Assembly: GCA_031360525.1 (NCBI GenBank)
Contig: JANMBS010000313.1
Span: forward strand, 1 to 24,895
DNA length: 24,895 bases
Direction: 5' to 3'
Source: Thermomicrobiales bacterium
GTDB taxonomy: Bacteria > Chloroflexota > Limnocylindria > Limnocylindrales > CSP1-4
Under the pieces are notes generated by a model. The model worked only from the letters and a program-made list of their open reading frames with translations. It had not been told where the DNA came from and did not search any database. Both the position numbers and the translations under genes were made by a program. This document shows, one piece after another, positions 1 to 13,232 of the stretch. Position 1 is the first letter of the stretch, and every line of letters begins with the position of its first letter.

Positions 1-2
1 CC

Positions 3-230
3 GCGCGCGACCGGTTCGCCGCCCAGGACGACGTGGCGTCGGCGACGATCCTGTCCGACGGGACGATCGAGCTCGGCTTCCGGGGGGACGACGCGGCGTC
101 GGCGCGGCTCCTGGCCGATGCCGTGTCTGCGGGTCTGCCGATCGCCAGCTTCGCCCGCGCAGCGAGCGACCTGGAGGAACTCTTCCTCCAGGTCACGGCC
201 GGCGACCTCGAGCCGGTCGCGGCGGCCTGA
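3..230 (+). CDS. ABC transporter ATP-binding protein, C-terminal fragment (5'-truncated by window edge)
   Basis: Frame is open from position 3. It ends in ...ASDLEELFLQVT..., the typical 'LEE.FL..T' tail of ABC-2/DrrA-type ATPases. Stop at 228-230 lies 3 nt before an ABC-2 permease. Walker motifs are outside the window. Confidence 0.8.
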   Translation, partial: ARDRFAAQDDVASATILSDGTIELGFRGDDAASARLLADAVSAGLPIASFARAASDLEELFLQVTAGDLEPVAAA

Positions 231-233
231 GCG

Positions 234-1568
234 ATGCCGATGCGCGACTCCCCGACCAATGCGTTCGAGACGCCCGATGTGAGCGCCACTCTCGAAGACC
301 TCGGGGACGAGTCGGGGACGATCGAGGGGATCGCCGCCCGACCGTTGCCCGACGACGCTTCAACGGCCCCTGCCATGGCGACCCAGCGGCGACGCCGGTC
401 TCCATTGGGGATCTTCCGGCGCACTGCGGGCGGGGTCGGGGCGGTCGGGGTCAAGGAGCTCCGCGGCCGGATGCGCGGGCGGCGCGCGTTCGTGATCCTG
501 AGTCTCTATCTCGTGCTCCTGGCGGGCTTTGCATGGATGGTCGAGCTCATCATGGAGCGAACATATTCGACGGGCTTCGGCGGCAGCGCCACGTTCGCGA
601 CGGCCGCGATCGGACAGGGCATCTTCGTCTCGATCCTGATGCTCGAGACGCTGCTCGTCGCGTTCCTTGCCCCGATGGCGACCGCCGGCTCGATCAGTCT
701 GGAGCGGGAGAAGCAGACCCTCGAGATGCTGGCAGCCACGCCGATCACCTCAGCCGCCATCGTGATCGGCAAACTTCTGAGCGCGCTGATCTACGTGTGG
801 CTCCTGATCGCCGCCTCGATCCCGCTGACCGCGGTCGTCTTCGTCTTTGGTGGCGTCGCCCCCGAGGACCTCCTGCACGGCTACCTCGTCCTCATCGTCA
901 CCGCGCTCGGACTCGGGGCGTTCGGGTTGCTGTGCTCTAGCCTGGTCAAGCGGACCCAGGCAGCGTCGGCGATCACGATCTTCGGCGTGCTCGCCTTGAG
1001 CATCGGCTCGCTGTTCGTCATCGTGTTCTGGCAGGCCCTGGCAGGCGCTGACGAGGGCCGCGGGACAGGCCCGATCAAGGGCTCGCCGCCGGCGCCGCTC
1101 ATGTTCCTCAACCCGTTCCTGGCCCAGGCCGACGTGGCTCCGACCGACGCCCTGTGCGCCGCAAACACCTCCCTCCGGTATTACTGCCGGTTCAAGGAGA
1201 CGTTCCTGCTTGACCAGAACGGGATCATCTTCGTCAACGGCTCGGGCACGAATCCCCCGATCCAGATCGACAACGTCGGCGTCCCGGTCCCGGTCGGGAT
1301 CGATCAAGCGCCCGTCGCCCTCGACCCGGACCAGCTCAAGCAACTCCAGATCAACGCAGGAGGCGGCGGTGTGGCCGGCAGGGACTTTGCGATCGCGAAG
1401 GGCGCACCAGTCCCGTTCGAGGTCGCCGACGCCGGGATCTGGCAGAAGTCCGTCGGCGCGTGGCTGGTGTTGTCGATCGTGTTTCTCCTGCTCTCCGTCC
1501 AGTTCGTGTCACCGACCCGTCGCTGGCGGCTGCGCCGCGGTGCCCGGCGCGGCCAGGGTGTCGCCTGA
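234..1568 (+). CDS. ABC-2 type transporter permease
   Basis: Multiple hydrophobic helices. 'KELRGRMRGRRAF' N-terminal motif and 'GSISLEREKQTLEMLAATP...IVIGKL' ABC-2 permease signature. Large loop before the last TM. TGATG overlap with the next gene at 1566-1570. Confidence 0.9.
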   Translation: MPMRDSPTNAFETPDVSATLEDLGDESGTIEGIAARPLPDDASTAPAMATQRRRRSPLGIFRRTAGGVGAVGVKELRGRMRGRRAFVILSLYLVLLAGFAWMVELIMERTYSTGFGGSATFATAAIGQGIFVSILMLETLLVAFLAPMATAGSISLEREKQTLEMLAATPITSAAIVIGKLLSALIYVWLLIAASIPLTAVVFVFGGVAPEDLLHGYLVLIVTALGLGAFGLLCSSLVKRTQAASAITIFGVLALSIGSLFVIVFWQALAGADEGRGTGPIKGSPPAPLMFLNPFLAQADVAPTDALCAANTSLRYYCRFKETFLLDQNGIIFVNGSGTNPPIQIDNVGVPVPVGIDQAPVALDPDQLKQLQINAGGGGVAGRDFAIAKGAPVPFEVADAGIWQKSVGAWLVLSIVFLLLSVQFVSPTRRWRLRRGARRGQGVA

Positions 1569-3463
1569 TGCGCCTGCTGTCCTCGCTTCGTCGCCGGCCG
1601 GCAGGGTCGTCACCAGCGCCTATGTTCGTCCCGCCGGATCCGCTAATGATGCTCGCGGGGCCGTTCGATCCGGAACTGGTCCGGCTGCGCAGCACCCTGC
1701 TCCCTTACCGCCGCCGCCTGTGGGTCCGCCGGCTGGTCCGGCGAGGGTGGGTCGCGCTTGCCGCGATCGCTGTCGCGGAACTCGCTTTGTGGACCGTCGC
1801 CCGCGTCGTTCCGCTCGAGCGAGCAGCGATGATCGGCGCGGCCCTCCCGCTGGCCGGCGTGCTTGGCTGGCTGATCGCCGGGGTGCGGGCGCGGCCCCGG
1901 ATCGGCGAGACTGCGCTTGCCATCGACGCGGAGGGGGCGCTCGGTGACCGCGTCTCGAGTGCCCTCGAGCTGGCGGTCGCGTTCCCGGATTCGGCAGGCC
2001 CGATCGTCGAAGCCGGGGACGGCGGCCAGTCGGAGCCCCTCGGCGAGGCGGCCGAGACCGACCGCTTTGTCCGCCGCCAGCGCCACGATGCGGTCCGCTC
2101 GATCGGCACCGCACCTGCCGGACTGTTCAGACCCCGCCTCTCACGCCAGCCTGCGACGGTCGCGCTGCTGGCGGCACTGCTCCTCGTCCCTGTGACCCTG
2201 TTGCCGAACCCACAGGACGCGGTGATCGCGCAGCAACAGCAGGTCCGCGAGGCGGCCGACCGCCAGGCCGAACGGCTGGATCGTGTCGCCGACGACCTCG
2301 CTGACAAGGGCCAGGACGCCAACGATCCCAGGACCAGGCTCGCGCAGAAACTGCGGGACCTGGCGCGTCAGCTGCGCGAGCACCCCGATGACCTCGACGC
2401 CAACCTCGCCCGCCTCGGAGCGATCGAGACCGATGTCCGGGCCCAGGTCGATCCGGCCAACGAGCAGCGTGCCGCGTCGCTGACGTCGCTGAGTCGGGCG
2501 CTCTCGAGTGCAGCGACGGGCAAACCCGACGAGAATCGCAACGGCGATCCGAAGAAGACGCGCGACGACCTCAAGCAGCTCGGTGACGAGCTCGACGGGC
2601 TGACGCCTGAACAACAGCGCGAGCTCGCGCGACAGCTTGCCGCGCTCGAGTCGACCGCCTCGCAGGCCGACGGAGCGGCGGGGACCGCGTTGAGCGAAGC
2701 CGCCCAGAGCCTGGCTCAGGGTGACACGGCGGGGGCGCGCACCGCGCTCGATCGACTGGGGCAGGCGCTGACGGGTGCCGACCGGCGCGTCACCGCAACG
2801 CGTGACCTGTCGGGAGCGGCATCTCGTCTCCAGGATGCGCGCCGCGACCTCGCCGATGCGGGCCGCCGGACGGCGGGTCAGGGTCAGCCAGGTCAGGGTC
2901 AGCTGGGTCAGGGTCAGGCCCAGCGCAGCCCCGGGACCGGTCAGGGACAGGGTCAGGGCCAAGGCAGCCCGAACCCGAGCGGAGCCGGCCAGGGTCAAGG
3001 TCAGGGTCAAGGCCAAGGCCAAGGTCAAGGCCAAGGCCAAGGCCAAGGTCAAGGCCAAGGCCAGGGTCAAGGTCAGGGTCAAGGTCAGGGCGCCATCGGT
3101 GGCGGCGGCTCGAACGCCCGCACGCTCGGCAATGGGATGGGCGGCAACGGCCGGCCGGCCGGACCGACGAACCCGAACCGACCTGCGGAGCTCGGCGCGG
3201 ACCTGTCGTCGGTCTTCGCGCCCTTCGATCGCCTGGGCAAGCCCGGAGACCCTTCGTACGTTGCCGGAACGGGCGGCGATGGTCAGACCCAGCAGGGCAG
3301 CCAGAACGGGCAGGGCTCCAACAACGGAACGCTGACCCCATACCAGCAGGTCTTCACCGATTTCGAGAAGTACGCGCAGACCTCGCTCGATCGCGGCTAC
3401 ATCCCGCTCTCGGTCAAGGACTACGTCAGGGACTACTTCAGCTCACTCGATCCATCCAACTGA
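1568..3463 (+). CDS. Membrane-anchored coiled-coil protein with Gly/Gln low-complexity region (DUF4175-like architecture)
   Basis: ATG at 1568 overlaps the permease stop; the ORF-track start at 1460 lies inside the permease. Three hydrophobic segments, 'IDAEGALGDRVSSALE' motif, long Ala/Leu/Gln/Glu helical region, GQ tract and C-terminal 'IPLSVKDYVRDYFSSL'. The family name is by resemblance only. Confidence 0.8.
   Translation: MRLLSSLRRRPAGSSPAPMFVPPDPLMMLAGPFDPELVRLRSTLLPYRRRLWVRRLVRRGWVALAAIAVAELALWTVARVVPLERAAMIGAALPLAGVLGWLIAGVRARPRIGETALAIDAEGALGDRVSSALELAVAFPDSAGPIVEAGDGGQSEPLGEAAETDRFVRRQRHDAVRSIGTAPAGLFRPRLSRQPATVALLAALLLVPVTLLPNPQDAVIAQQQQVREAADRQAERLDRVADDLADKGQDANDPRTRLAQKLRDLARQLREHPDDLDANLARLGAIETDVRAQVDPANEQRAASLTSLSRALSSAATGKPDENRNGDPKKTRDDLKQLGDELDGLTPEQQRELARQLAALESTASQADGAAGTALSEAAQSLAQGDTAGARTALDRLGQALTGADRRVTATRDLSGAASRLQDARRDLADAGRRTAGQGQPGQGQLGQGQAQRSPGTGQGQGQGQGSPNPSGAGQGQGQGQGQGQGQGQGQGQGQGQGQGQGQGQGQGAIGGGGSNARTLGNGMGGNGRPAGPTNPNRPAELGADLSSVFAPFDRLGKPGDPSYVAGTGGDGQTQQGSQNGQGSNNGTLTPYQQVFTDFEKYAQTSLDRGYIPLSVKDYVRDYFSSLDPSN
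2987..3088 (+). repeat. Coding tandem repeat (GGYCAR)17 encoding (Gly-Gln)17
   Basis: 17 consecutive hexamers counted directly. The 24-bp block ggccagggtcaaggtcagggtcaa occurs at 2987-3010 and again at 3059-3082. Degenerate GQ/GQP units extend upstream to about 2880. Confidence 0.97.
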
Positions 3464-3468
3464 CCGCC

Positions 3469-3473
3469 GGAGG
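3469..3473 (+). promoter_or_regulatory. Shine-Dalgarno for moxR
   Basis: GGAGG followed by 4 nt and then ATG at 3478. Confidence 0.75.
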
Positions 3474-3477
3474 CAAC

Positions 3478-4491
3478 ATGACCGCGTCCAGCGCGCCCGA
3501 AGGGGTTCCCCGCCTCGCCCCCGAGGCATTCGCCGAACGTGCCCAGGCGATCGAACGAGAGGTCGGCCGCGTCATCGTCGGCCAGGCGGCACTCGTTCGC
3601 CAGACGCTGACCGGACTGCTGGCGAACAGCCATGTCCTGCTCGAGGGAGTTCCCGGCCTCGGCAAGACGATGCTGGTCCGCACGATCGCGGACGTCATCG
3701 ATTGCAACTTCAATCGGATCCAGTTCACGCCGGACCTGATGCCTGCCGACATCACCGGCACGAACATCCTCATCGAGGAGGGCGGCCAGCGCGTCTTCCG
3801 CTTCCAGCCCGGACCGATCTTCGCCAACCTGGTGCTCGCCGACGAGATCAACCGGGCGACCCCCAAGACGCAGTCGTCGCTTCTGGAAGCGATGCAGGAA
3901 CACCAGGTGACCGTCGCCCGCCAGCGATACCCGCTCGATGCGCCGTTCTTCGTGCACGCGACCCAGAACCCGCTCGAGATGGAGGGGACCTATCCCCTCC
4001 CCGAGGCCCAACTCGACCGCTTCCTGTTCAAGGTCATGGTCCCGTTCCCTTCCGAGGCCGACCTCGTCTCGATCATGGAGCGGACGACGGGCACCGAGAC
4101 CGTGACCGCGGCGAAGGTCTGCACGGCGGCCGAGATCGTCGAGATGCAGCGCCTCGCCCGCGCCGTCCCGATCGCGCCGCACGTCACGGCCTATGCGGTC
4201 AGCGTCCTGGCCGCGACCCATCCCGACCAGCCGCGGGCCCCGGGGCTCGTCCAGGACTACGTGCGCTACGGCGGCTCGCCGCGTGGCGCCCAGGCACTCG
4301 TCACGGGCGGCAAGATCTACGCGTTGCTCGACGGCCGCTTCAACGTCTCGATCGACGACATCCGGGCGGTTGCCCTGCCGTCGCTCCGCCACCGGATCAT
4401 CCTCAACTTCGAGGGCGAGGCGGAGGGCATCACCACCGAGGCCGTCATCCGGGCCGTCCTCGACGCGGTCGTCGCCCCGGCCGTCGAGTAG
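3478..4491 (+). CDS. moxR: MoxR-family AAA+ ATPase (MoxR proper type)
   Basis: Walker A GVPGLGKT, RIQFTPDLMPADITG, Walker B region LADEINRATPKTQSSLLEAMQE, ATQNPLEMEGTYPLPEAQLDRF, and C-terminal lid SPRG...LRHRI. Confidence 0.97.
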   Translation: MTASSAPEGVPRLAPEAFAERAQAIEREVGRVIVGQAALVRQTLTGLLANSHVLLEGVPGLGKTMLVRTIADVIDCNFNRIQFTPDLMPADITGTNILIEEGGQRVFRFQPGPIFANLVLADEINRATPKTQSSLLEAMQEHQVTVARQRYPLDAPFFVHATQNPLEMEGTYPLPEAQLDRFLFKVMVPFPSEADLVSIMERTTGTETVTAAKVCTAAEIVEMQRLARAVPIAPHVTAYAVSVLAATHPDQPRAPGLVQDYVRYGGSPRGAQALVTGGKIYALLDGRFNVSIDDIRAVALPSLRHRIILNFEGEAEGITTEAVIRAVLDAVVAPAVE

Positions 4492-4519
4492 GGCCGCGGC
4501 GACCGCGGCGACCCGAGCG

Positions 4520-5497
4520 ATGGACGGCTCCCCCACGCGCCCCAGCGCCACGGCCGCGGACCGGCCGGTCGAACGGCCGGCCGTCGGCGCCCGCCAGGCG
4601 TTCCTGCCGAGCGAGGTCGACCCGACCGTCTTCGACGAGTCCTTCCTGCGCCAGCTCGAGCGTCTGCTTCTGTTGATGCGCTCGCCCGTGCGTGGCGGGC
4701 TCAAGGGCGGCCGCCGGAGCGTCAAGCGCGGCCAATCGGTCGAATTCGCCGATTATCGGGACTACTCCCTGGGCGACGACCTGCGCCAGCTCGACTGGAA
4801 CGTCTACGCCCGCCTCGAGCGGCTCTTCGTCAAGCTCTTCGTCGAGGAAGAGGACGTCACGATCACGCTACTCATCGATGCTTCGGCGTCGATGGCGACC
4901 GGCCACCCGGCCAAGCTGTTGTTCGCCAAGCGGGCGGCGGCGGCCCTCGGCTACATCGGGCTCGCCAGCGAGGACAGGGTCGCGGTCAGTGCGCTGACCG
5001 GCCGAGTCGCCCGGCGACGGGCGGCGATGCGCGGCTCAGGACGCATCTTCCGGCTGCTGGCCGATCTCTCGTCGATCGAGTCGGCCGACGGCCCGACCGA
5101 CATCGTGGCCGCTGCCCGGCACGCTGGCGCACAGCTCCACGGGCGTGGCGTGGTGGTGCTCATCTCCGACCTGCTCGACCCGGCCGCCGACAAGGTCATT
5201 CGCGAGCTCGCGGCGACCGGCTCCGAGCTGGTCATTCTCCACGTCCTGTCCCCGGAGGAGGTCGACCCCCAGCTCGAAGGCGACCTCCGGCTTGTCGATA
5301 TCGAGACCGGCGACGGCATGGACGTCACCGTCGACCTGGCCACGATCGACGCCTACAAGGCTCGACTGGCGGCCTGGAAGGCGGGCTTCGCCGACCTCGC
5401 GGCAAAGCGACGGGCTAGCTACGTGGACCTCTCGTCGGACGCGAACCTGGCCGACCTGATGTTCGCCGAGCTGCGTCGCCGGCGCGTGCTGGGGTAG
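4520..5497 (+). CDS. DUF58 domain protein (MoxR partner, VWA-like)
   Basis: 'GQSVEFADYRDYSLGDDLRQLDWNVYAR...VKLF.EE' DUF58 signature, followed by DASASM (MIDAS-like) and ISD. ATG at 4520 was chosen because the longer ORF-track start overlaps moxR. Confidence 0.93.
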   Translation: MDGSPTRPSATAADRPVERPAVGARQAFLPSEVDPTVFDESFLRQLERLLLLMRSPVRGGLKGGRRSVKRGQSVEFADYRDYSLGDDLRQLDWNVYARLERLFVKLFVEEEDVTITLLIDASASMATGHPAKLLFAKRAAAALGYIGLASEDRVAVSALTGRVARRRAAMRGSGRIFRLLADLSSIESADGPTDIVAAARHAGAQLHGRGVVVLISDLLDPAADKVIRELAATGSELVILHVLSPEEVDPQLEGDLRLVDIETGDGMDVTVDLATIDAYKARLAAWKAGFADLAAKRRASYVDLSSDANLADLMFAELRRRRVLG

Positions 5498-5500
5498 CCG

Positions 5501-7624
5501 GTGCCGTTCACGACCCCGCTCGCGTTGCTCGGGCTGCTGTTCATCCCGGCGGTCGTGGCGATGTACCTGCTCAAACTCCGACGCGACGAGACGATCGTGC
5601 CGTCCACGTTGCTGTGGACCCGCCTGGTCGCCGACGTGGAGGCCAACGCGCCGTGGCAGAGACTGCGCCGCAGCCTGCTTCTGCTCCTCCAGTTGCTTCT
5701 CGTCGTCATCCTCGCCCTGCTCGCGGCTCGGCCGTTCCTTGAGCGCCCGGCGGGTCTCGCCCGCGACGTCGTGCTGGTCATCGATACCTCGGCGAGCATG
5801 GCCGCGACGGACGTCGCACCCAACCGTCTCGAGGCGGCCAAGACGGCAGCGATCGCGGCCTTGCGCGACCTGCCGACGGGCGGGAAAGTCAGTGTCATCG
5901 CCGCCGACCGGAGCGCCCGGATCGTGGTCAACGAGACGACCGACCTGGGCCGGGTCCGCCAAGCGCTCGATGGCATCGAGACGACGAGCGCCCGTGGCGA
6001 CCTCGGCGACGCGCTCGAGCTCGCCGGGAAGCTGGCCGCCCGATCCGGTGATGCCCAGATCCTCGTCGCGACCGACGGCGCGCTCGCGACACCTGCCACG
6101 ACCACGGTCCCGGCCAGGATCACGGTGCTGTCGGTCGGCCGCGAACGCAAGAACCAGGCGATCGTCGCAATGGCGGTTCGGACGGCGCCGTCGGCGGTCA
6201 CGCGCTCCGTCTTCGTCAGCATCGCGAACCTCGACCTGGAACGGGCCGGGCGGCGGCTCGAGGTGTGGGGCGACGGGGCACTGATCGAGGTGCGCGACCT
6301 GCTGTTGGACCCACAGGCTCGCTCTGACGTCGTCATCGACGACGTGCCGCGTGACGTCGGGACGCTCGAGATCAGGCTCGTCGGCCCCGATCCCACCGTG
6401 ACGGCCGCGCCCGACCAGCTGGCCGTCGACGACCGGGCGTGGGCTGTCGTCCCGCGCGATCGCACGCGACTGATCCTCGTGGTGGGGCCCGGCGACCCAT
6501 ACCTCGAGACGGCCCTCAGCTACCTCCCGAATGTCGAGCTGTTCGGGGTCGCCGCCGCGGAGTACGGACCCGCCAGCGAGCGCACGGACGGCCGCCCGTG
6601 GGACCTGGTGATCTTCGAGGGCTCGCTCCCGACGACGCTCCCCCGGGCGCCGATCCTCGCCATCGCACCGAGCGCGACCAGTCCGCTCGGCGAGGTGACC
6701 GGCACGTTGACGAACCCGGGGATCGGGTCGCTGGACCCCGATGAACCGATCCTGCGCTATGTCGACCTGTCGACGACCCACATCGCGTCGGCCTCACGCT
6801 TCGTCCTCCCCGACTGGGCACGAATGGTGGTCCCCGGGCCTCAGGGTGCTCCCCTGCTCTACGCCGGGTCGCGAGCCGGCCTGCCGACCGCTGTCCTGGC
6901 CTTCGAGCCGCGGCGCTCCGACTTGCCGCTCCAGGTCGCCTTCCCGATCCTGCTCGCGAACCTGACTGGCGAACTACTGGGCGGATCCGCGGCCCCGACG
7001 GAGGCGGTCCAGCCGGGGACGCCGGTGAGCCTGTCGATCCCGTCCGGCGCGACCGGTCTGGCGGTGACCAAGCCCGATGGAACCGTCGTCGAGCTGGTGC
7101 CCGGGACTGCACTCGCCGCCGGCATGACGTTTTCGGGGACGGAGCTGCCGGGGATCTACGTCGTGACGCCGCACCTGGCGCCGGCGTCGTCGGCGGCACC
7201 GTCCGGTAGCGGGTCCGGGCCGACGGCACGCCCGACGCCGACCACCACGGCCAGTCCGCGCGCGTCCGCCGCGGGTGGCTCGGCCGCGCCATCTGCGGCC
7301 CCGGTCGACCCGAACGCCCCGGTGCGCTTCGCCGTCGACCTCTTCGACGTCAACGAATCGACGATCGCTCCCGGCTCAGCGGCCGCCATCGAGGCACTTG
7401 GCCTCGGTCCGGGCGAGTCCGCGTCCCCCGGACCCGGCACCGGCCCGGGTGCGCCGGCCATGACCCGGCCGACCGCCCGTGACGAACTGTGGGTACCGAT
7501 CGTGCTCCTTGTGCTCATCGCGCTGTGCGTCGAGTGGGCCGTGTACCACCGCGACACGCTGACCCGCCTGCGGCGTGGCCTCGGCGCCAGGTTCGAACGA
7601 GATGCCCCGGATGGGAGTGCCTGA
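5501..7624 (+). CDS. BatA N-terminal + VWA domain membrane protein
   Basis: N-terminus 'PLALLGLLFIPAVVAMYLLKLRR...VPSTLLW' is BatA-type. MIDAS DTSAS at 5783 with ATDG. Ig-like beta region, Pro/Ser/Ala linker and C-terminal TM 'ELWVPIVLLVLIALCVEW'. GTG start 3 nt after the DUF58 stop. Confidence 0.9.
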   Translation: MPFTTPLALLGLLFIPAVVAMYLLKLRRDETIVPSTLLWTRLVADVEANAPWQRLRRSLLLLLQLLLVVILALLAARPFLERPAGLARDVVLVIDTSASMAATDVAPNRLEAAKTAAIAALRDLPTGGKVSVIAADRSARIVVNETTDLGRVRQALDGIETTSARGDLGDALELAGKLAARSGDAQILVATDGALATPATTTVPARITVLSVGRERKNQAIVAMAVRTAPSAVTRSVFVSIANLDLERAGRRLEVWGDGALIEVRDLLLDPQARSDVVIDDVPRDVGTLEIRLVGPDPTVTAAPDQLAVDDRAWAVVPRDRTRLILVVGPGDPYLETALSYLPNVELFGVAAAEYGPASERTDGRPWDLVIFEGSLPTTLPRAPILAIAPSATSPLGEVTGTLTNPGIGSLDPDEPILRYVDLSTTHIASASRFVLPDWARMVVPGPQGAPLLYAGSRAGLPTAVLAFEPRRSDLPLQVAFPILLANLTGELLGGSAAPTEAVQPGTPVSLSIPSGATGLAVTKPDGTVVELVPGTALAAGMTFSGTELPGIYVVTPHLAPASSAAPSGSGSGPTARPTPTTTASPRASAAGGSAAPSAAPVDPNAPVRFAVDLFDVNESTIAPGSAAAIEALGLGPGESASPGPGTGPGAPAMTRPTARDELWVPIVLLVLIALCVEWAVYHRDTLTRLRRGLGARFERDAPDGSA

Positions 7625-10620
7625 TGGGCATCTCGTTCGACGCCCCGCTCGCCCTGCTCCTGCTCATCCCGGCGCTTCTGCTGACGATCGGGCTGCACCT
7701 CGGGGCACGGCGCCGGATGGGCTCGGGGCGACGGCGGGCTGCGCTCATCGTTCGGTCGCTGCTGCTGGCGGCGCTCGTCTTCGCACTCGCCGGCTTCCAG
7801 CTGGTCCTGCCGGTCGACCGGCTGGCCACCGTCTTCGTCGTCGACCTCTCCGATTCGGTCGGCAACGCGGGACGGGAGGACGCCCTCGCCTTCCTGCGCG
7901 ACACCCTCAAGGAACGGCCCGATGGCGACGTCGCCGGGATCGTCGCGTTCGGCAAGGGCGCGCTGGTCGAGCGGTTGCCGTCCGAACTGACAGAGATCGA
8001 CCGGCTGGCTTCGGCCCCGATCCGCTCGGCGACCGATATCGGCGCGGCACTCCGCCTTGCGGCGGCACTCTTCCCGGACGACGCGCAGAAGCGGATCGTG
8101 CTGCTCTCCGACGGCAACGACACGACCGGCGACGGCCAGACCGAGGCGGCCCTTGCGGCCTCGCGGGGCGTCCGCATCGAGACGCGACGGATCGGGCTGG
8201 GCGACGTCGACGAGGTCCTCATCGAGCGACTGACGACACCCTCGACCGCACGGCTCGGCGAGACGGTGCCGGTCGTCGTCGAGGTGCGCTCGACGGTCGC
8301 CCAGACCGCGACGATCCGCCTCTTCGCCAACGGGACGCTTGTCCAGACGAAGCCGGTCGAGCTGGTCGCCGGCTTGAACACCATCTCGTTCTCGGACGTC
8401 AAGCCGGTCGAAGCCGGGTTCGTGCGCTTCCGCGCGGTCGTCGAGGCAGCGCTCGACACCTTCAGCGAGAACGACCGGGCCGACTCCAACACGATCGTCA
8501 AGGGCGAGCCGCGGACGCTTGTGCTGGCCGGTGACGATTCGGTGGCCATCGAGCTTGTCGCGGCCCTGCGTGAACAGCGCCAACAGGTCGACACGATCGT
8601 GCCCGAGGCGCTCCCGACCGACCTCGGCAGCCTGGCTGGCTATGACAGCGTGGTGCTGGTCGACGTGTCGCGGCTCCGCTTGAACGATCGACAGCTCGCT
8701 GCGCTCCAGGTCTACGTCCGCGATCTCGGGAAGGGCCTGGTCATGATCGGCGGACCGAAGAGCTATGGCGCCGGCGGTTACCAGAAGACGCCGCTCGAGG
8801 AGAGCCTGCCGGTCGACATGGGTGTGCGCAACCGCGAGAAGCAGCCCGATATCGCGCTGGTCGTCGTCATCGACCAGTCGGGCTCCATGGCCGCTTGCCA
8901 CTGCAACTCGTTCAACGGCGGGATGGGCGGCGGTTCCGGGATCGGCGGCGTCCAGAAGGTGGACATCGGAAAGGAGGCGATCCTGCGGGCCGCCGCGGCT
9001 CTGACCGATCGCGACGAACTCGGTGTCGTCGGCTTCAACGAGGCCGCACACTGGGTCGTCCGCACCCAACCGCTCGGCGGGATCGGCGACCTCCAGGCGC
9101 AGATCGCCGGGATCCGTGCGGACGGGCAGACGAACATCTTCGCCGGCCTCGACCAGGCGGTGACCTCGCTCGAGGGGGCGACCGCGACACGCCGCCACAT
9201 CATCCTGCTGACTGACGGATGGTCGACCTCGGGCCAGTACGACGCGATCATCGCCAAGATGAAGGCAGACGGCATCACGCTCTCGACGGTCGGCGCGGGC
9301 GGTGGCGCCAACCCGTTCCTCGAGCAGCTCGCCAAGCAGGGTGGCGGCCGGTTCTACGCGGCGACCAACCCGAACAGCATCCCTGACATCTTCCTCAAGG
9401 AGACCCAGCAGGTCTCCGGCCAGCAGATCGTCGAGGAGACGTTCTTCCCGATCCAGACGTCGTCGTCGCCGATCCTGCGCGGGCTGGACGCCGGACTGCC
9501 GCAGCTGCGCGGCTACAACGGGACGACGATCAAGGCGGCCGCCCAGAGCGTGCTCGTGACGGCTCGCGACGATCCGCTCCTCGCGTCGTGGCAGTACGGG
9601 CTGGGGCGCTCCGTGGCTTGGACGTCGGACTCGACCGGGCGCTGGGCGAAGGACTGGGTCGGCTGGAGTGGCTTCAACCGATTCTTCAACCAGATGGTCG
9701 GCTGGACCTTCCCGGGCGAGGAGACAGGTGGCATCGAGGCGACCTTCGAGGCGACCGGCGGCAAGACCACCCTGCACGTCCAGAGCGTCGACGCCGACGG
9801 ATCGCCTCGGGACTTCTACGCCACGAGCGCGAGCATCGTCGGACCCGATCTCGAGCCGGCGACCGTCAGCCTGGTCCAGGTCGCCCCGGGCGTGTACGAA
9901 GCGCCGCTTGGCGAGATCGAGCCGGGCGCCTATGCCGTCCGCGTGACCCAGACTCTCCCGGGGTCGTCGCCACTCGGAAGGACGGTCGGACTTGTCGCAC
10001 AGACCGCGGCCGAGTACCGCCAGCTGGGAGCCAACGAACCATTCCTCGCGTCGTTGCGGGCCGCGACCGGCGGGACGGTCATCGCTACTGCCTTGGATCC
10101 GTGGCGGCACGATCTGACCGCCACCGACCGGTTCACCGACTTGTGGCCTCTGCTGCTCGTCCTGGCGCTGCTGCTGTGGCCGCTTGATATCGCGCTGCGC
10201 CGGATGTCGCTCGGCCGGCGTGAGCTGGTGGCTGCCCGCGGCTGGGTCGGCGGGATCGGGCGTCGGCGCCGGGCTGCAGGCCCGCGGACGGCCACCGCCG
10301 AAGGCTTGCTCGCGGCGAGCGGCCGTGTCCGGACGAGCGACGCCCGTGCGGCGATGAGGACTGCCCCCGTCGCGGTGCCGGCGGTGCCTGAGTCACAGCC
10401 GAGCCCCGAGCCTGCCGCGTCGAAACGCCCGGATGCCCCGGCGGCCGCTTCGGCCCCGGCGGTCTCGGCGACTCCGGCCCCCACCACCCCTGTCCCGAAG
10501 TCGCCGATGCCGCGCACTCCCGCCGCGAGACCTGCCCCGGCCACTGCACCTCCGCCGACCGAGGCAGTCGACACGATGTCCCGCCTGCGCGACGCGAAAC
10601 GCCGCGCCCGAGACCGCTAG
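7624..10620 (+). CDS. Large membrane protein with two VWA domains, an Ig-like domain and a GATase1-like (DUF1355-type) domain
   Basis: ATG overlaps the previous stop (TGATG 7622-7626). N-terminal double TM. VWA1 DLSDS/ATDIG/LSDG. 'YDSVVLVDV...GLVMIGGPKSYGAGGY..TPLEESLPV' GATase-like segment. VWA2 DQSGS/QTNI/LTDG. 'WQYGLGRSVAWTSD', a TM 'LWPLLLVLALLLWPLDIALRR' and a Pro/Ala tail. Confidence 0.9.
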   Translation: MGISFDAPLALLLLIPALLLTIGLHLGARRRMGSGRRRAALIVRSLLLAALVFALAGFQLVLPVDRLATVFVVDLSDSVGNAGREDALAFLRDTLKERPDGDVAGIVAFGKGALVERLPSELTEIDRLASAPIRSATDIGAALRLAAALFPDDAQKRIVLLSDGNDTTGDGQTEAALAASRGVRIETRRIGLGDVDEVLIERLTTPSTARLGETVPVVVEVRSTVAQTATIRLFANGTLVQTKPVELVAGLNTISFSDVKPVEAGFVRFRAVVEAALDTFSENDRADSNTIVKGEPRTLVLAGDDSVAIELVAALREQRQQVDTIVPEALPTDLGSLAGYDSVVLVDVSRLRLNDRQLAALQVYVRDLGKGLVMIGGPKSYGAGGYQKTPLEESLPVDMGVRNREKQPDIALVVVIDQSGSMAACHCNSFNGGMGGGSGIGGVQKVDIGKEAILRAAAALTDRDELGVVGFNEAAHWVVRTQPLGGIGDLQAQIAGIRADGQTNIFAGLDQAVTSLEGATATRRHIILLTDGWSTSGQYDAIIAKMKADGITLSTVGAGGGANPFLEQLAKQGGGRFYAATNPNSIPDIFLKETQQVSGQQIVEETFFPIQTSSSPILRGLDAGLPQLRGYNGTTIKAAAQSVLVTARDDPLLASWQYGLGRSVAWTSDSTGRWAKDWVGWSGFNRFFNQMVGWTFPGEETGGIEATFEATGGKTTLHVQSVDADGSPRDFYATSASIVGPDLEPATVSLVQVAPGVYEAPLGEIEPGAYAVRVTQTLPGSSPLGRTVGLVAQTAAEYRQLGANEPFLASLRAATGGTVIATALDPWRHDLTATDRFTDLWPLLLVLALLLWPLDIALRRMSLGRRELVAARGWVGGIGRRRRAAGPRTATAEGLLAASGRVRTSDARAAMRTAPVAVPAVPESQPSPEPAASKRPDAPAAASAPAVSATPAPTTPVPKSPMPRTPAARPAPATAPPPTEAVDTMSRLRDAKRRARDR

Positions 10621-10643
10621 GGTCTCGATCAGGGGCCCTCGTG

Positions 10644-10672
10644 TCCTGGCCGTCGGTCCGGGCGTGCCAGGA
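10644..10672 (+). terminator. GC-rich hairpin after the ABC/MoxR/VWA operon (possible terminator, no U-tract)
   Basis: TCCTGGC (10644-10650) pairs with GCCAGGA (10666-10672), extendable by CGTC/GGCG with one G-U. It starts 23 nt after the stop at 10620. Confidence 0.45.
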
Positions 10673-10727
10673 TCGACATCGACTGAAGTCGCCCGCCCTG
10701 CCGACGGCACCTGAACGTCGCCGGTGG

Positions 10728-10733
10728 TAGCCT
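10728..10733 (+). promoter_or_regulatory. Extended -10 (TGn-TAGCCT), probable leaderless promoter
   Basis: tgg-TAGCCT followed by 8 nt and ATG 10742; no SD present. Confidence 0.55.
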
Positions 10734-10741
10734 CCGGCTCG

Positions 10742-11206
10742 ATGTTTCGGATCCGGCCACTGGCACTCTGCTTCGTCGTGTTCGTCGCGCTCGCCGTGGC
10801 CGCCTGCCGCTTCGTCGAGACGACGCCGCCGGCGCCGACACCGGCCGATTTCCCGGATACGGCGATCCAACTCGCCCAGCGTGGGATCGCGCTCGATCAT
10901 GTCGTCTCAGGCGACGCCGGCTGCGATGACAAGGTCCTGGCGCCGACCGCGATCGCCTTCGACGCATCGGGGCTCGACCAGCCGAACAAGGTGCGCGTCT
11001 ACCTGTACGTCTTCCGGAACAGGGAGTCGTTCGAACGCCTGCGGGCGAGCGTCGACGCCTGCGCGCGGAGCTTCGTGACCGATCCCGCGGCATACGAGTC
11101 GATCGAGCAATCGCCATACGTGATGGTCGGCCAGGGTCCGTGGGGAAGGCAGTTCGAGGCGGCCCTCCGGGCCGGGCTGGAGATCGCGGCCGGGACCGGC
11201 GACTGA
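10742..11206 (+). CDS. Putative lipoprotein of unknown function
   Basis: MFRIR positive n-region, hydrophobic h-region and lipobox LAVAA-C22. Pro/Thr linker followed by a globular domain with two further Cys. Confidence 0.75.
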   Translation: MFRIRPLALCFVVFVALAVAACRFVETTPPAPTPADFPDTAIQLAQRGIALDHVVSGDAGCDDKVLAPTAIAFDASGLDQPNKVRVYLYVFRNRESFERLRASVDACARSFVTDPAAYESIEQSPYVMVGQGPWGRQFEAALRAGLEIAAGTGD

Positions 11207-11283
11207 CGGCCGTTCCGACAGACTGCGTTTCCGACCGCCCGCGCTGTGGACGCCGCCAAGACCGGCACCCCGGCCTGACCGCC

Positions 11284-12450
11284 CTAGACGACGCGCAGCT
11301 CCAGGACATGGCGGGCGATCACGAGTCGCTGGATCTGGCTCGTCCCCTCGCCGATCTCAGTCAGCTTAGCGTCGCGCAGGTAGCGCTCGACCGGATATTC
11401 GGTGACGTAGCCGTAGCCGCCGTGGATCTGGATGGCGTTGTTGGTGACCCGTGAGCTCACCTCGGACGCGAACAGCTTGGCCTGGGCCGCGACCAGCGCG
11501 AAATCACGGCCCTGATCCTTGAGCCAGGCTGATCGCCAGACGAGGCCGCGCGCTGCCTCGATCTCTGTCGCCATGTCGGCGACCATGAACGCGACGCCCT
11601 GGAACGTGCCGATCGGTCGGCCGAACTGCTCGCGCGTCTGGGCGTACGGGATCGAGGCATCGAGCGCGCCCTGGGCGATCCCGACTGCCAGCGCGCCGAT
11701 CGAGATCCGGCCGCCGTCGAGGATGCGCAGGAACGTCTTGAAGCCGCTCCCCTGCTCGCCCAGCATGTTCGCCGCGGGGACGCGGGCCCCATCGAAGATC
11801 AGTTCGCCCGTCGCCGACGCGTGCAGCCCCATCTTGTCCTCGAGCCGGCCGACCGAGAAACCGGGCGTATCGGCCGGGACGATGAAGGCGCTGATCTCGG
11901 CCGCCCCGTCGTCGCGCGTCCCGGTCCGCGCGGTGATCACGTAAGTGCCTGCCTGACCGGCGTTCGTGATGAAGCGCTTGCCGCCATCGAGCACCCACGA
12001 CACGCCATCGGGGCCGTCCTCGCGGCGCGCCGTCGTCCTCGTGCCACCCGAATCGCTGCCGGCCCCGGGCTCGGTCAGCCCGTACGCGCCGAGGACCTCG
12101 CCACGGGCCATCGGCACCAGGTAGCGCTGCTGCTGGTCCTTGGATCCGGCCAGATGGAGTGGCCCGCAGCCGAGGCTCGTGTGCGCCGCGACGATCAGCC
12201 CGAGCGAGCCCCACACCCGGCCGATCTCCTCGATGGCGATGGCATAGGCGAGCGTGTCGAGGCCTGCCCCACCCTCGTCCTCGGGGATCGGGATGCCGAG
12301 CCAGCCGAGCTCGCCGATGCGGCGCACGATCTCGGACGGGAAGCGGCGCTCGCGTTCGTGCACATCGATGACGGGCGCGACTTCGGTCAGCATGAAGTCG
12401 CGGATCGTCTCGCGGAGCAGCGTGTGCTCCGGGGAGAGGTCGAGGTCCAT
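11284..12450 (-). CDS. Acyl-CoA dehydrogenase (short/branched-chain type)
   Basis: 'GAYGLTEPGAGSD', 'GGKRFITNAG', 'KMGLHAS', 'AIQIHGGYGY' and 'DAKLTEIGEGTSQIQR' with the catalytic Glu in the SCAD/MCAD position. Start MDLDLSPEH at 12450. Confidence 0.95.
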   Translation of the reverse strand: MDLDLSPEHTLLRETIRDFMLTEVAPVIDVHERERRFPSEIVRRIGELGWLGIPIPEDEGGAGLDTLAYAIAIEEIGRVWGSLGLIVAAHTSLGCGPLHLAGSKDQQQRYLVPMARGEVLGAYGLTEPGAGSDSGGTRTTARREDGPDGVSWVLDGGKRFITNAGQAGTYVITARTGTRDDGAAEISAFIVPADTPGFSVGRLEDKMGLHASATGELIFDGARVPAANMLGEQGSGFKTFLRILDGGRISIGALAVGIAQGALDASIPYAQTREQFGRPIGTFQGVAFMVADMATEIEAARGLVWRSAWLKDQGRDFALVAAQAKLFASEVSSRVTNNAIQIHGGYGYVTEYPVERYLRDAKLTEIGEGTSQIQRLVIARHVLELRVV

Positions 12451-12457
12451 GGCCCCG

Positions 12458-12463
12458 AGCGTA
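12458..12463 (-). promoter_or_regulatory. Extended -10 (TGn-TACGCT), probable leaderless promoter of the acyl-CoA dehydrogenase
   Basis: The minus strand reads tgg-TACGCT-cggggcc-ATG (7-nt spacer). It overlaps a plus-strand TACCAT at 12462-12467. Confidence 0.6.
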
Positions 12464-12494
12464 CCATCGGACTGCACGTCTCGGACGCCGGTGC

Positions 12495-12500
12495 TAGCCT
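12495..12500 (+). promoter_or_regulatory. Extended -10 (TGn-TAGCCT), probable leaderless promoter of the regulator
   Basis: tgc-TAGCCT-gaccgg-ATG (6-nt spacer); no SD. Confidence 0.55.
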
Positions 12501-12506
12501 GACCGG

Positions 12507-13232
12507 ATGAGGGAGCCCACGTCGTTGCCTGCCGTCCGCGAGGCCGCCAACCACCACTTCGCTGCTGGCCCTGGCCAGACCGCCGCCAAAGGTCCATCGA
12601 GCCTGCGGCGCGACCTCCTGCTCCGCCTTCGACTCGACGGACCCAGTTCCCCGGACCAGCTCGCCGGGCGGATCGGCGCCAGCCGAACGGGCGTCCTCCA
12701 ACAGCTTCGAGCGCTCGAGGCCGCGCACCTCGTCAGCCGACAGACGGTCCGTCACGGCGTCGGCCGGCCGCGCCATCTGTACGACGTCACCACCGATGCC
12801 CAGGACCTGTTCCCGTCCAATTACGACGGTCTGGCGGCAGGCCTTCTGGCCGCCATCGAGGCAGTTGGTGGGGACGATCTGCTTGACCAGGTCTTCACGG
12901 CGCGGCGGCGCCAGCTCGGTGACAGGGTCCGCGAACAGATGGCTGAACGGATCGCCCCCGAAGCGCCGCTCCTCGAGCGCGTTCGCGAACTGTCGGTCAT
13001 CCAGGCCGATCAGGGCTACCTGGCCGACGCCACGATCAGTCCCGACGGCACGATCCGACTGAGTGAGCACAACTGCGCCATCTATCACATCGCGGCGGGC
13101 TCGCCCGCGGCATGCCAGGCGGAGCTCGAGCTGTTCACCGAGATCCTCGGGGCGGAGGTCGTCCGCGAACAGCACATCGCCTCAGGCGATCGCAGCTGCT
13201 CCTACCGGATCGCGGAGCGCCGCACCGACTGA
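12507..13232 (+). CDS. Winged-HTH transcriptional regulator, SufR/COG2345-like, with three Cys
   Basis: N-terminal wHTH 'LAGRIGASRTGVLQQLRALEAAHLV...GVGRPRHLY' and 'FPSNY'. C-terminal C-X12-C-X27-C (codons at 13074, 13113, 13197) in 'EHNCAI...CQAE...GDRSCSY'. Confidence 0.85.
   Translation: MREPTSLPAVREAANHHFAAGPGQTAAKGPSSLRRDLLLRLRLDGPSSPDQLAGRIGASRTGVLQQLRALEAAHLVSRQTVRHGVGRPRHLYDVTTDAQDLFPSNYDGLAAGLLAAIEAVGGDDLLDQVFTARRRQLGDRVREQMAERIAPEAPLLERVRELSVIQADQGYLADATISPDGTIRLSEHNCAIYHIAAGSPAACQAELELFTEILGAEVVREQHIASGDRSCSYRIAERRTD

Follow-up and report, generated by a model that had tools for sequence, protein, structure and literature searches.

The window is the whole of one contig, 24,895 nucleotides long, from a freshwater-sediment Limnocylindria MAG. 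It holds seven same-strand genes, as the preliminary description had reported, and ORFs, translations and junction sequences agree with its coordinates, its gaps and its two TGATG couplings. The genes, and a microsatellite that lies within one of them, are as follows.

3..230, + strand: ABC-2-type ATPase (DrrA/GldA-like), C-terminal 75 residues, truncated by the contig end (translation; weak DrrA1-3_C match)
234..1568, + strand: ABC-2 permease, 444 aa (PF12679; AF2 model)
1568..3463, + strand: membrane protein ("coiled-coil"/stalk), 631 aa, DUF4175-like architecture (alignment, topology, AF2)
2987..3091, + strand: coding microsatellite, hexanucleotide GGNCAR, encoding (Gly-Gln)n in the disordered tract of the stalk (Tandem Repeats Finder: period 6, 15.8 copies)
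3478..4491, + strand: MoxR-type AAA+ ATPase, 337 aa (AAA_3 2.4e-63; AAA_lid_2 8.4e-17)
4520..5497, + strand: DUF58 protein, 325 aa, VWA-like fold (PF01882 2.5e-34; DASAS at nt 4877)
5501..7624, + strand: BatA-type membrane protein, 707 aa, BatA_N+VWA (BatA 1.3e-11; VWA_2 1e-18)
7624..10620, + strand: VWA+VWA+GATase1_like membrane protein, 998 aa (VWA_2, VWA and, in two stretches, GATase1_like)

The gaps between the genes are, in order, 3, -1, 14, 28, 3 and -1 nt. TGATG is found at both -1 nt junctions, permease/stalk and 707-aa/998-aa VWA genes, and GGAGG precedes the moxR ATG in the 14-nt gap. Matches to ABC2_membrane_2, AAA_3, DUF58, BatA, VWA_2, VWA and GATase1_like pass the curated Pfam cut-offs. 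A motif search finds DxSxS (MIDAS) motifs starting at nt 4877, 5783, 7843 and 8872, exactly where four had been placed before.

Because the contig ends where the window ends, the ABC ATPase is cut and a gene further upstream is out of view. In Pfam, the fragment gives only a sub-threshold DrrA_C match. Its identity as an ABC ATPase comes from relatives and from a full-length variant copy: contig C329, from the same bin, ends in sequence with 88% identity to nucleotides 1-187 of the window and carries a full-length variant ATPase matching ABC_tran (8e-29) and TIGR01188 drrA (3.9e-76). Of the two ATPases first described, MoxR stands on its own AAA_3 match; the ABC ATPase stands through the full-length copy and the relatives, and not on the fragment. 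The size of the unit has to be revised. Judged by sequence comparison, the seven genes are in all probability the last seven of an eight-gene operon, in which a gene for a DUF4350/GldG-like accessory protein comes first, just outside the window and upstream of the ABC ATPase.

Of 38 accessory proteins, 18 match DUF4350 and 21 match DUF7408. We take the accessory to be a large membrane protein of this DUF4350/DUF7408 (GldG-like) kind, the link to GldG being made through the published HHpred comparison of DUF4350. Its ectodomain is homologous to the Ig and GATase1-like part of the 998-aa VWA protein (hhalign 96.7%, E 3.8e-10; also jackhmmer). The best named NCBIfam matches of the ATPase and the permease are GldA and GldF, both below cut-off: GldA (TIGR03522) scores 210.5 bits on the C329 variant ATPase (3.7e-62; cut-off 402.6) and GldF (TIGR03518) scores 28.7 bits on the permease (cut-off 288.5). 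With scores so far under the equivalog cut-offs, orthology to GldA and GldF was rejected.

The permease matches PF12679 at 51.3 bits (cut-off 27.2). Its predicted topology has an N-terminal cytosolic extension, a basic cytosolic tail and a 136-residue extracytoplasmic loop (residues 266-401) ahead of the last TM helix. The best PDB match of its AF2 model (pTM 0.75) is NosY of NosDFY (E 1.5e-4, TM by target 0.6-0.68). ABCG, Wzm and KpsM chains are matched as well, and the ABCG exporters score nearly as high as NosY. An ABC-2 membrane family above cut-off and an ABC-2 fold place the permease among the type V transporters. NosY is the closest solved fold (NosDFY(L), the ABC machinery for copper/sulfur delivery to nitrous oxide reductase; PDB 7o0y and 7qba), and the likeness, at 19% identity, is one of fold only. 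Unlike NosDFY(L), the operon has no NosD-like beta-helix protein, NosL or NosZ, and its accessory, unlike NosD, is DUF4350/GATase1-like and itself membrane-embedded. Membership in NosDFY was rejected, as the likeness is confined to the NosY fold and the accessory is DUF4350/DUF7408-like.

The next product was first labelled a coiled-coil protein, and we refer to it as the stalk protein. The model shows instead three TM helices, an ectodomain of several helices, a disordered tract and, at the C-terminus, a two-helix domain. The predicted topology starts with an N-in TM hairpin (62-80 / 88-106); residues 107-194 would form a conserved loop in the cytosol, and a third TM helix (195-213) has an LPNP motif right after it. 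A helical ectodomain (215-433) and a disordered Gly/Gln tract of ~150 residues (439-589) are predicted outside the membrane, and in the AF2 model the protein ends in a conserved two-helix domain (592-626). In the alignment, the length of the Gly/Gln tract differs widely among homologues.

No Pfam family matches the stalk protein. Pfam DUF4175 (PF13779/TIGR02302) comes no closer than E 0.17 (10.3 bits, cut-off 27.3, residues 39-214), and its model finds no match in sets of 20, 34 and 9 homologues or in the genome itself. Nine AFDB-cluster matches to the stalk model are named DUF4175 (E 2e-12 to 1e-6, nearly the whole model covered), and the highest-ranking cluster in the Atlas bears the name 'DUF4175 (fragment)' (score 0.94). 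The stalk resembles DUF4175/TIGR02302 in its N-terminal TM helices, long external helical region and Gly/Gln-rich low-complexity tract, but differs in never being significant against the Pfam DUF4175 model.

MoxR carries AAA_3 (PF07726; 212.3 bits, cut-off 27) and AAA_lid_2 (61.1, cut-off 22.7). Its Walker A (GVPGLGKT) and Walker B (LVLADEINR) motifs are both intact in the translation, and its closest solved chain is 2r44 (E 2e-75). The DUF58 gene (PF01882; 118.8 bits, cut-off 23.4) lies directly 3' of moxR across the 28-nt gap, and the MIDAS Asp/Ser/Ser of its product is invariant across 44 sequences. Neither protein has a TM segment, and a cytosolic location is predicted for both. A MoxR-vWA-beta-propeller conflict system, or another defence identity, was rejected: the locus encodes neither a beta-propeller nor an effector domain, the bpMoxR match of MoxR is secondary (4.5e-10, against 2.4e-63 for AAA_3), and a PADLOC search with anti-phage defence models gives nothing beyond one marginal match.

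The 707-aa protein matches BatA (PF07584; 45.1 bits, cut-off 25.9) and VWA_2. Its predicted layout runs from a double-TM anchor at the N-terminus through a VWA domain outside the membrane (DTSAS, nt 5783), an Ig-like region and one more ectodomain to a C-terminal TM helix with a short cytosolic tail. Its BatA/BatB-type combination of double-TM anchor and VWA is shared by the 998-aa protein; hhalign of the two VWA families (96.4% over residues 2-329) points to a shared N-terminal architecture. In the 998-aa protein, the anchor and VWA1 (DLSDS, nt 7843) are followed by an Ig-like domain and by a GATase1_like domain interrupted by a second VWA (DQSGS, nt 8872). The GATase1-like part matches PDB 3rht, a (GATase1)-like protein, at E 2.8e-6. 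The protein is predicted to close with a beta-rich domain, a last TM helix and, in the cytosol, a Pro/Ala-rich tail of 140 residues that bears a conserved basic RLRDAKRR-type motif.

Hydropathy and the positive-inside rule thus put MoxR and DUF58 in the cytosol, and the three non-DUF58 VWA domains, the GATase1-like domain and the helical domains outside. This agrees with Borrelia BB0173, whose VWA domain is periplasmic by experiment (PMC5700661). With the membrane in between, MoxR cannot touch the VWA domains directly, and the earlier suggestion that it remodels or loads them is not supported as it stands. Its companion, that VWA or stalk proteins loaded by MoxR are then exported or positioned by the ABC module, is very improbable. 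Gene adjacency is what favors it. Against it, the stalk and VWA proteins are TM-anchored themselves and would use the general insertion pathway, MoxR and DUF58 are on one side of the membrane and the VWA domains on the other, and the permease is most like NosY, the partner of a periplasmic protein. Of the type V transporters with solved structures among the matches, some act on small molecules, lipids or polymers and others power a periplasmic partner; a protein exporter is not among them.

The part of the operon from moxR onward resembles the Bat/Cmd MoxR operons, in which a MoxR AAA_3 protein is followed by DUF58 and by BatA-anchored extracytoplasmic VWA/MIDAS membrane proteins. The Bat/Cmd-type set includes B. 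fragilis batI, Borrelia bb0170-bb0176, Leptospira bat and Rhizobium leguminosarum cmdA-D (RL3499-RL3502). These operons are linked to the envelope; as relayed in PMC5700661, mutants of Rhizobium cmdA-D have envelope and morphology defects. Unlike them, the present operon is without BatC (TPR), BatD and BatE (SH3), families that are missing from the Pfam matches of the seven products and of the upstream accessory. To the Bat/Cmd plan it adds a gene for a DUF4175-like stalk ahead of moxR, a GATase1-like domain into which a second VWA is inserted and, as part of one operon, an ABC-2 module of three genes. A literature search found no published account of the full cassette, and the operon appears to be an unpublished combination, built on a Bat/Cmd-type MoxR-VWA plan with an ABC-2 module added.

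A Bat-type role in aerotolerance or oxidative stress, with the VWA proteins and MoxR adapting or protecting the envelope against oxygen and the ABC module exporting a reductant or protectant, would fit the BatA N-terminal domain and the VWA proteins beside MoxR and DUF58, as in B. fragilis batI. Expression of Borrelia bb0170-bb0176 also shifts with oxygen (PMC5700661). We nonetheless hold this role to be improbable, given the missing BatC, BatD and BatE domains and an operon with no redox-related gene. The aerotolerance role is itself mechanistically unexplained, and a study of Leptospira biflexa bat mutants reportedly found no part for the genes in oxidative stress.

A second parallel comes from archaea. 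DUF4350 (arCOG01314) is GldG-like by HHpred and is found in archaeal operons with MoxR and vWA, a neighborhood predicted to form a secretion or membrane-remodelling complex (Makarova, Galperin, Koonin 2015, PMC5898192). The present operon likewise has an anchored protein with an extracellular DUF4350 domain (flavodoxin/GATase1-like, putatively GldG-like) along with MoxR and vWA. The archaeal operons lack an ABC transporter and have S-layer-like Ig proteins in its place. Here the DUF4350-like gene directly precedes those for the ABC ATPase and the permease, and BatA-type VWA proteins are encoded.

The preliminary description had staked a single system on the ABC and stalk genes staying linked to the moxR, DUF58 and VWA genes across genomes. 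A gene-neighborhood survey found this linkage kept. The order permease-stalk-moxR-DUF58-VWA1-VWA2, with the ABC ATPase directly upstream, is present in all 80 close loci with enough flank, 77 of which also have the accessory gene, and, among 40 loci sampled across diverse families of Chloroflexota, in 27. Full order extends to Anaerolineae, where the stalk is ~30% identical. Median intergenic gaps over ~100 loci, to be read as upper bounds, are -7, -16, 8, 44, 16.5, 6 and -1 nt. The junction that bridges the two halves, permease to stalk, is a TGATG overlap in the window and spans <=100 nt in 90 of 98 loci, and junctions between modules are as tight as those within them.

The modules, A for accessory, ATPase and permease and B for the stalk, MoxR, DUF58 and VWA proteins, are separable. 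In Chloroflexia-like genomes, accessory-ABC-permease forms a stand-alone operon far from stalk-moxR-DUF58-VWA, and some other lineages lack the three-gene ABC module. The 301 sampled genomes divide into 95 with stalk and accessory, 13 with the stalk only, 8 with the accessory only and 185 with neither, so that 95 of the 116 having either marker family have both, counts that are inflated by shared ancestry and by single deletions removing a fused operon. Losses are concerted within families, even within one genus. Since about two-thirds of the sampled Chloroflexota have neither family, the system is dispensable, and it is likely an accessory trait rather than an essential one.

These data bear on whether the two modules are independent neighbors, an ABC-2 exporter of lipid or polymer, with its accessory protein, beside a Bat/Cmd-like operon, joined by an ancestral fusion and kept together by inertia without coupling. 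The stand-alone operon and the genomes with one module only are what independence would predict, and MoxR-DUF58-VWA operons work without ABC genes in Bacteroides, spirochaetes and Rhizobium (PMC5700661). We still consider independence unlikely, though it deserves some weight. Gene order and tight or overlapping junctions survive down to ~25-30% identity across many families, most genomes with either module have both, the ectodomain of the accessory has a paralogue within the MoxR module, and archaeal DUF4350 proteins are themselves MoxR/vWA partners (PMC5898192).

Module A on its own recalls the gliding-associated transporter GldA-GldF-GldG of Bacteroidota, which likewise joins an ATPase and a permease of the ABC-2 type to a large accessory; here the accessory's ectodomain is putatively GldG-like. 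MIDAS VWA domains are classical adhesion modules, and a GldAFG-like transporter might support MIDAS VWA adhesins for attachment, aggregation or filament gliding. The GldA and GldF matches and the DUF4350/GldG-like accessory lend this idea what we regard as a slim chance. Both matches fall far from their equivalog cut-offs, the VWA proteins are held in the cytoplasmic membrane at both ends and so have limited reach, the modules lie apart in Chloroflexia-like families and, unlike GldAFG, module A has MoxR/VWA genes attached, with no other gld or spr genes in the locus.

We therefore favor, at somewhat better than even confidence, an eight-gene operon that builds one cell-envelope system from two modules and two ATPases, with surface or envelope assembly, maintenance or remodelling its likely role. 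Modules A and B may form one membrane complex. Module A would supply a type-V (ABC-2) ATPase-permease pair and the large DUF4350/GldG-like accessory, in the accessory-ATPase-permease order of the nos genes. Module B would supply a Bat/Cmd-type set of stalk, MoxR, DUF58 and two doubly anchored VWA proteins. MoxR and DUF58 would work at the cytoplasmic face, on the stalk's conserved loop and on those stretches of the VWA proteins, loops and tails, that lie in the cytosol, and would thereby assemble or switch an external array. The NosFY ABC-2 pair moves an extracytoplasmic partner, NosD, and is not known to pump solute; the ABC pair here might likewise spend ATP on moving the GATase1-like accessory ectodomain. 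As that ectodomain is paralogous to the one in the large VWA protein, the two may dock. The external MIDAS sites could bind a wall or surface ligand, or one another.

Few bacterial gene clusters without a known mechanism are as widespread as the MoxR-DUF58-VWA operons, and GldAFG-type ABC-2 transporters with GldG-like partners are likewise unexplained. The Chloroflexota operon puts MoxR-VWA and ABC-2 in one predicted transcription unit, with a DUF4350-like protein independently tied to each, and is therefore a natural experiment on their common ground. It offers contact hypotheses in the stalk cytosolic loop, the basic tail of the large VWA protein and the paralogous GATase1-like ectodomains. 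The system occurs in about one-third of the sampled Chloroflexota, a phylum that is dominant in soils and sediments and about whose envelope little has been learned.

A bolder version of the favored reading, to which we give a small probability, is a trans-membrane machine of a new kind with two ATPases. MoxR-DUF58 and the NosFY-like pair would act on one shared set of doubly anchored proteins with MIDAS/VWA and GATase1-like ectodomains and switch an external adhesive or scaffold array on and off, a bacterial analogue of integrin inside-out activation. In such a machine, the points of action for MoxR-DUF58 would be cytosolic loops and the large VWA protein's conserved basic tail, and the ABC pair would act by way of docking between the paralogous GATase1-like ectodomains.

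The best-supported reading of this locus is that eight genes encode a single envelope system that draws on two energy sources. Seven of them lie in the window and are listed here, followed by two downstream genes:

3-230, + strand: ABC ATPase, C-terminal fragment of 75 residues (open reading frame (ORF) and translation; below the Pfam curated cut-off)
234-1568, + strand: ABC-2 permease (ORF and translation; Pfam above the curated cut-off)
1568-3463, + strand: stalk, a membrane/helical protein of 631 aa (ORF and translation)
3478-4491, + strand: MoxR (ORF and translation; Pfam above the curated cut-off)
4520-5497, + strand: DUF58 protein (ORF and translation; Pfam above the curated cut-off)
5501-7624, + strand: VWA1, a BatA_N and VWA protein of 707 aa (Pfam above the curated cut-off)
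7624-10620, + strand: VWA2, the large VWA protein of 998 aa, with two VWA domains and a GATase1_like domain (Pfam above the curated cut-off)
11284-12597, − strand: acyl-CoA dehydrogenase, the next large gene downstream of the operon
12507-13232, + strand: small winged-helix regulator, downstream of the operon

The ORF listing, translation, and junction sequences bear out the seven co-directional genes of the preliminary description. The gaps it gave (3, −1, 14, 28, 3, and −1 nt) are correct, and both −1 gaps are TGATG overlaps. Its four MIDAS-like motifs are likewise in place, with DxSxS starts at nt 4877, 5783, 7843, and 8872. The operon ends at 10620, and the next large gene is on the opposite strand. 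A scan of 1-11500 found no sigma-70-like promoter and terminator-like sites at chance level, and is uninformative because the genome is 70% GC. The flanking genes on the acyl-CoA dehydrogenase and winged-helix regulator side differ among lineages and give no hint on function. A 154-aa ORF without a Pfam family (10742-11206, + strand) starts about 120 nt 3′ of the operon. In 48 of 80 close loci the gene right after VWA2 is a homologue of this ORF, which could be a loosely attached ninth gene or an unrelated conserved neighbour.

The eighth gene lies off the window, which is one whole contig (C108, 24,895 bp) of a metagenome-assembled genome of 598 contigs that is 78.8% complete. The names of its nearest homologues assign it to class Limnocylindria of the Chloroflexota. 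The sequencing runs listed as containing the window sequence are all DNA runs, mostly from freshwater-sediment and sediment metagenomes, with no RNA run among them. On two further contigs of the bin, C198 (locus L139) and C329 (locus L138), the locus occurs again in diverged form. C198 encodes stalk, MoxR, and DUF58; compared with the window proteins, identity is 59% and 86% for its stalk segments and about 90% for its MoxR and DUF58. The end of C329 matches window nt 1-187, the end of the ATPase gene, at 88% nucleotide identity. The contig breaks of this second copy coincide with the window start, suggesting either that different strains or species were binned together or that the cassette has a paralogue. 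C329 encodes a complete DrrA/GldA-like ABC ATPase. The gene just upstream of it, in the same orientation, is for an 838-aa membrane protein, P0275, which itself matches no Pfam family. An iterative profile of P0275 places a gene of its family next to the ABC ATPase gene, on the upstream side, in 77 of the 80 close loci; all diverse loci with the ABC genes also have it. Among 38 members of this accessory family, 21 match DUF7408 and 18 match DUF4350. Since the gene is so consistently upstream of the ATPase, the unit is one of eight genes, in the order accessory, ATPase, permease, stalk, MoxR, DUF58, VWA1, VWA2.

This order is conserved. The close loci come from species-representative genomes and were mapped by tblastn and phmmer (stalk identity 46–83%); the order is unchanged in every one of the 80 with enough flank. 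Independent gene calls and Pfam labels show the whole order kept on an Anaerolineae contig whose stalk is only about 30% identical. Across about 100 loci the intergenic gap medians, which are upper bounds, are −7, −16, 8, 44, 16.5, 6, and −1 nt, and the junction bridging the ABC and MoxR modules is as tight as those within them. One locus (L101, genome G235) runs from accessory through ATPase, permease, stalk, and moxR to DUF58, with VWA1 and VWA2 absent within 9 kb downstream. An apparent permease–stalk fusion protein (P0100) was rejected as an assembly or gene-calling artefact because frame breaks abound on its contig, L097.

The main rival reading is that the ABC and MoxR modules are independent neighbours, and lineages with unlinked modules keep it alive. 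We fetched 40 diverse loci from as many Chloroflexota families as possible. The ABC module adjoins the MoxR module in 27 (4 of these cut by contig or fetch ends) and is not adjacent in 12; one locus is too short to judge. Chloroflexia-like genomes carry stalk, moxR, DUF58, and VWA alone, with an accessory–ATPase–permease operon elsewhere on the chromosome. Nine loci from large Chloroflexia-like genomes (L098, L099, L102, L103, L140-L144) come with two to three DUF4350-like accessory paralogues per genome, at least one of them in such a stand-alone operon.

Profiles of the stalk and accessory families were searched against 301 Chloroflexota genomes, each at least 85% complete. The stalk family is present in 108 and the accessory family in 103; both occur in 95 genomes, the stalk only in 13, the accessory only in 8, and neither in 185, counts that are not phylogenetically independent. 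Stalk matches are weak (E above 1e-20) in 11 of the 13 stalk-only genomes. Four weak-match loci that were fetched (L116-L118, L136) encode very diverged stalks that still keep the N-terminal domain, and the one stalk among them that was fully read also keeps the C-terminal YV..YF motif. Presence is patchy even inside one genus, and the system is therefore an accessory one.

The proteins themselves suggest further ties between the modules. Residues 104-264 of the accessory ectodomain align with VWA2 residues 236-398 (hhalign, 96.7% probability, E 3.8e-10), that is, with the Ig domain and the first half of the GATase1-like region. Makarova et al. (PMC5898192) likened DUF4350 to GldG and placed it at the centre of archaeal operons that also carry MoxR and vWA genes, whose products they predicted to form a secretion or membrane-remodelling complex. 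The Chloroflexota operon thus unites two known contexts of the DUF4350-type fold, one with an ABC-2 partner and one with a MoxR/vWA partner. A second tie may lie in the cytosolic tail of VWA2. Where the genome contains the ABC module, this tail spans 65–165 residues and in most loci terminates in an RL(L/R)xAKRR-like motif. Six loci have a short tail (0–55 residues) without the motif, and the accessory family is absent from 5 of these 6 genomes. The pattern is qualitative only, as the regex test of tail motif against ABC presence is too crude to count, and it is only a lead because the six loci may be one clade. The basic RLRDAKRR-type motif is conserved across classes and is possibly a docking peptide. 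In the window the tail (10201-10620) is Pro/Ala-rich and disordered, and ends in a motif of this type.

Topology was predicted from hydropathy and the positive-inside rule. MoxR and DUF58 have no transmembrane (TM) segments by these measures. VWA1 and VWA2 are predicted to be N-out. In each, two TM helices joined by a basic cytosolic loop precede a large ectodomain (586 and 775 residues, respectively), and a C-terminal TM helix leads into a cytosolic tail. In line with this topology, the VWA domain of Borrelia BB0173 was shown experimentally to be periplasmic (PMC5700661). The Cys-His-Cys of VWA2 (8884-8892) follows the DxSGSM motif of the second MIDAS, where a 36-sequence alignment of the VWA2 family has no consensus; the insert is thus not apparently a conserved family feature. 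The permease has no match in a sequence search of the PDB, and its model (pTM 0.75) is closest in fold to NosY of NosDFY, then to ABCG transporters. The earlier proposal that MoxR loads VWA subunits for ABC export misfits both the predicted topology and this ABC-2 fold class.

The analysis establishes which genes are present, their order and close spacing, the conservation of the locus, and the predicted topology and domain homologies of the proteins; every contact between the operon proteins, like the cellular role, is inferred. In a single envelope system, cytosolic loops and tails would be the targets of MoxR/DUF58. A NosFY-like ABC pair would drive movement of the GATase1-like accessory outside the membrane, and the working surface would consist of the MIDAS-bearing VWA ectodomains. 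The MoxR half is a Bat/Cmd-type operon that lacks BatC, BatD, and BatE. The best named matches of the ABC half make it GldAFG-like, but they fall far below the equivalog cut-offs. The literature searched held no description of the ABC and MoxR–VWA combination, nor of the stalk family beside MoxR. A defence-system reading was rejected, as PADLOC returned nothing beyond one marginal match.

The stalk is predicted to be N-in. Its TM hairpin is followed by a cytosolic loop of 88 residues, in which the best-conserved motif of the family lies, and then by a third TM helix; the remaining 418 residues are outside. A complex prediction of this cytosolic loop with Mg-bound DUF58 scored 0.00, with the partner fold uncertain, and speaks neither for nor against a contact. 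The AF2 model of the stalk (mean pLDDT 74; >90 over most of residues 35-433) is all-helical to residue 433, followed by a disordered Gly/Gln tract (439-589) and two terminal helices. Foldseek against the PDB gave no match at E ≤ 0.001. Nine AFDB-cluster matches are named DUF4175; Pfam DUF4175 was never significant on the stalk or the scanned homologues. An exhaustive profile search with the N-terminal domain gave 13,400 cluster representatives at E ≤ 0.001, which marks a very large family; all of the 150 matches listed are close relatives. At 2987-3091, a GGNCAR hexanucleotide microsatellite of 15.8 copies codes for the (Gly-Gln)n run of the stalk, and the length of the Gly/Gln tract varies widely among homologues.
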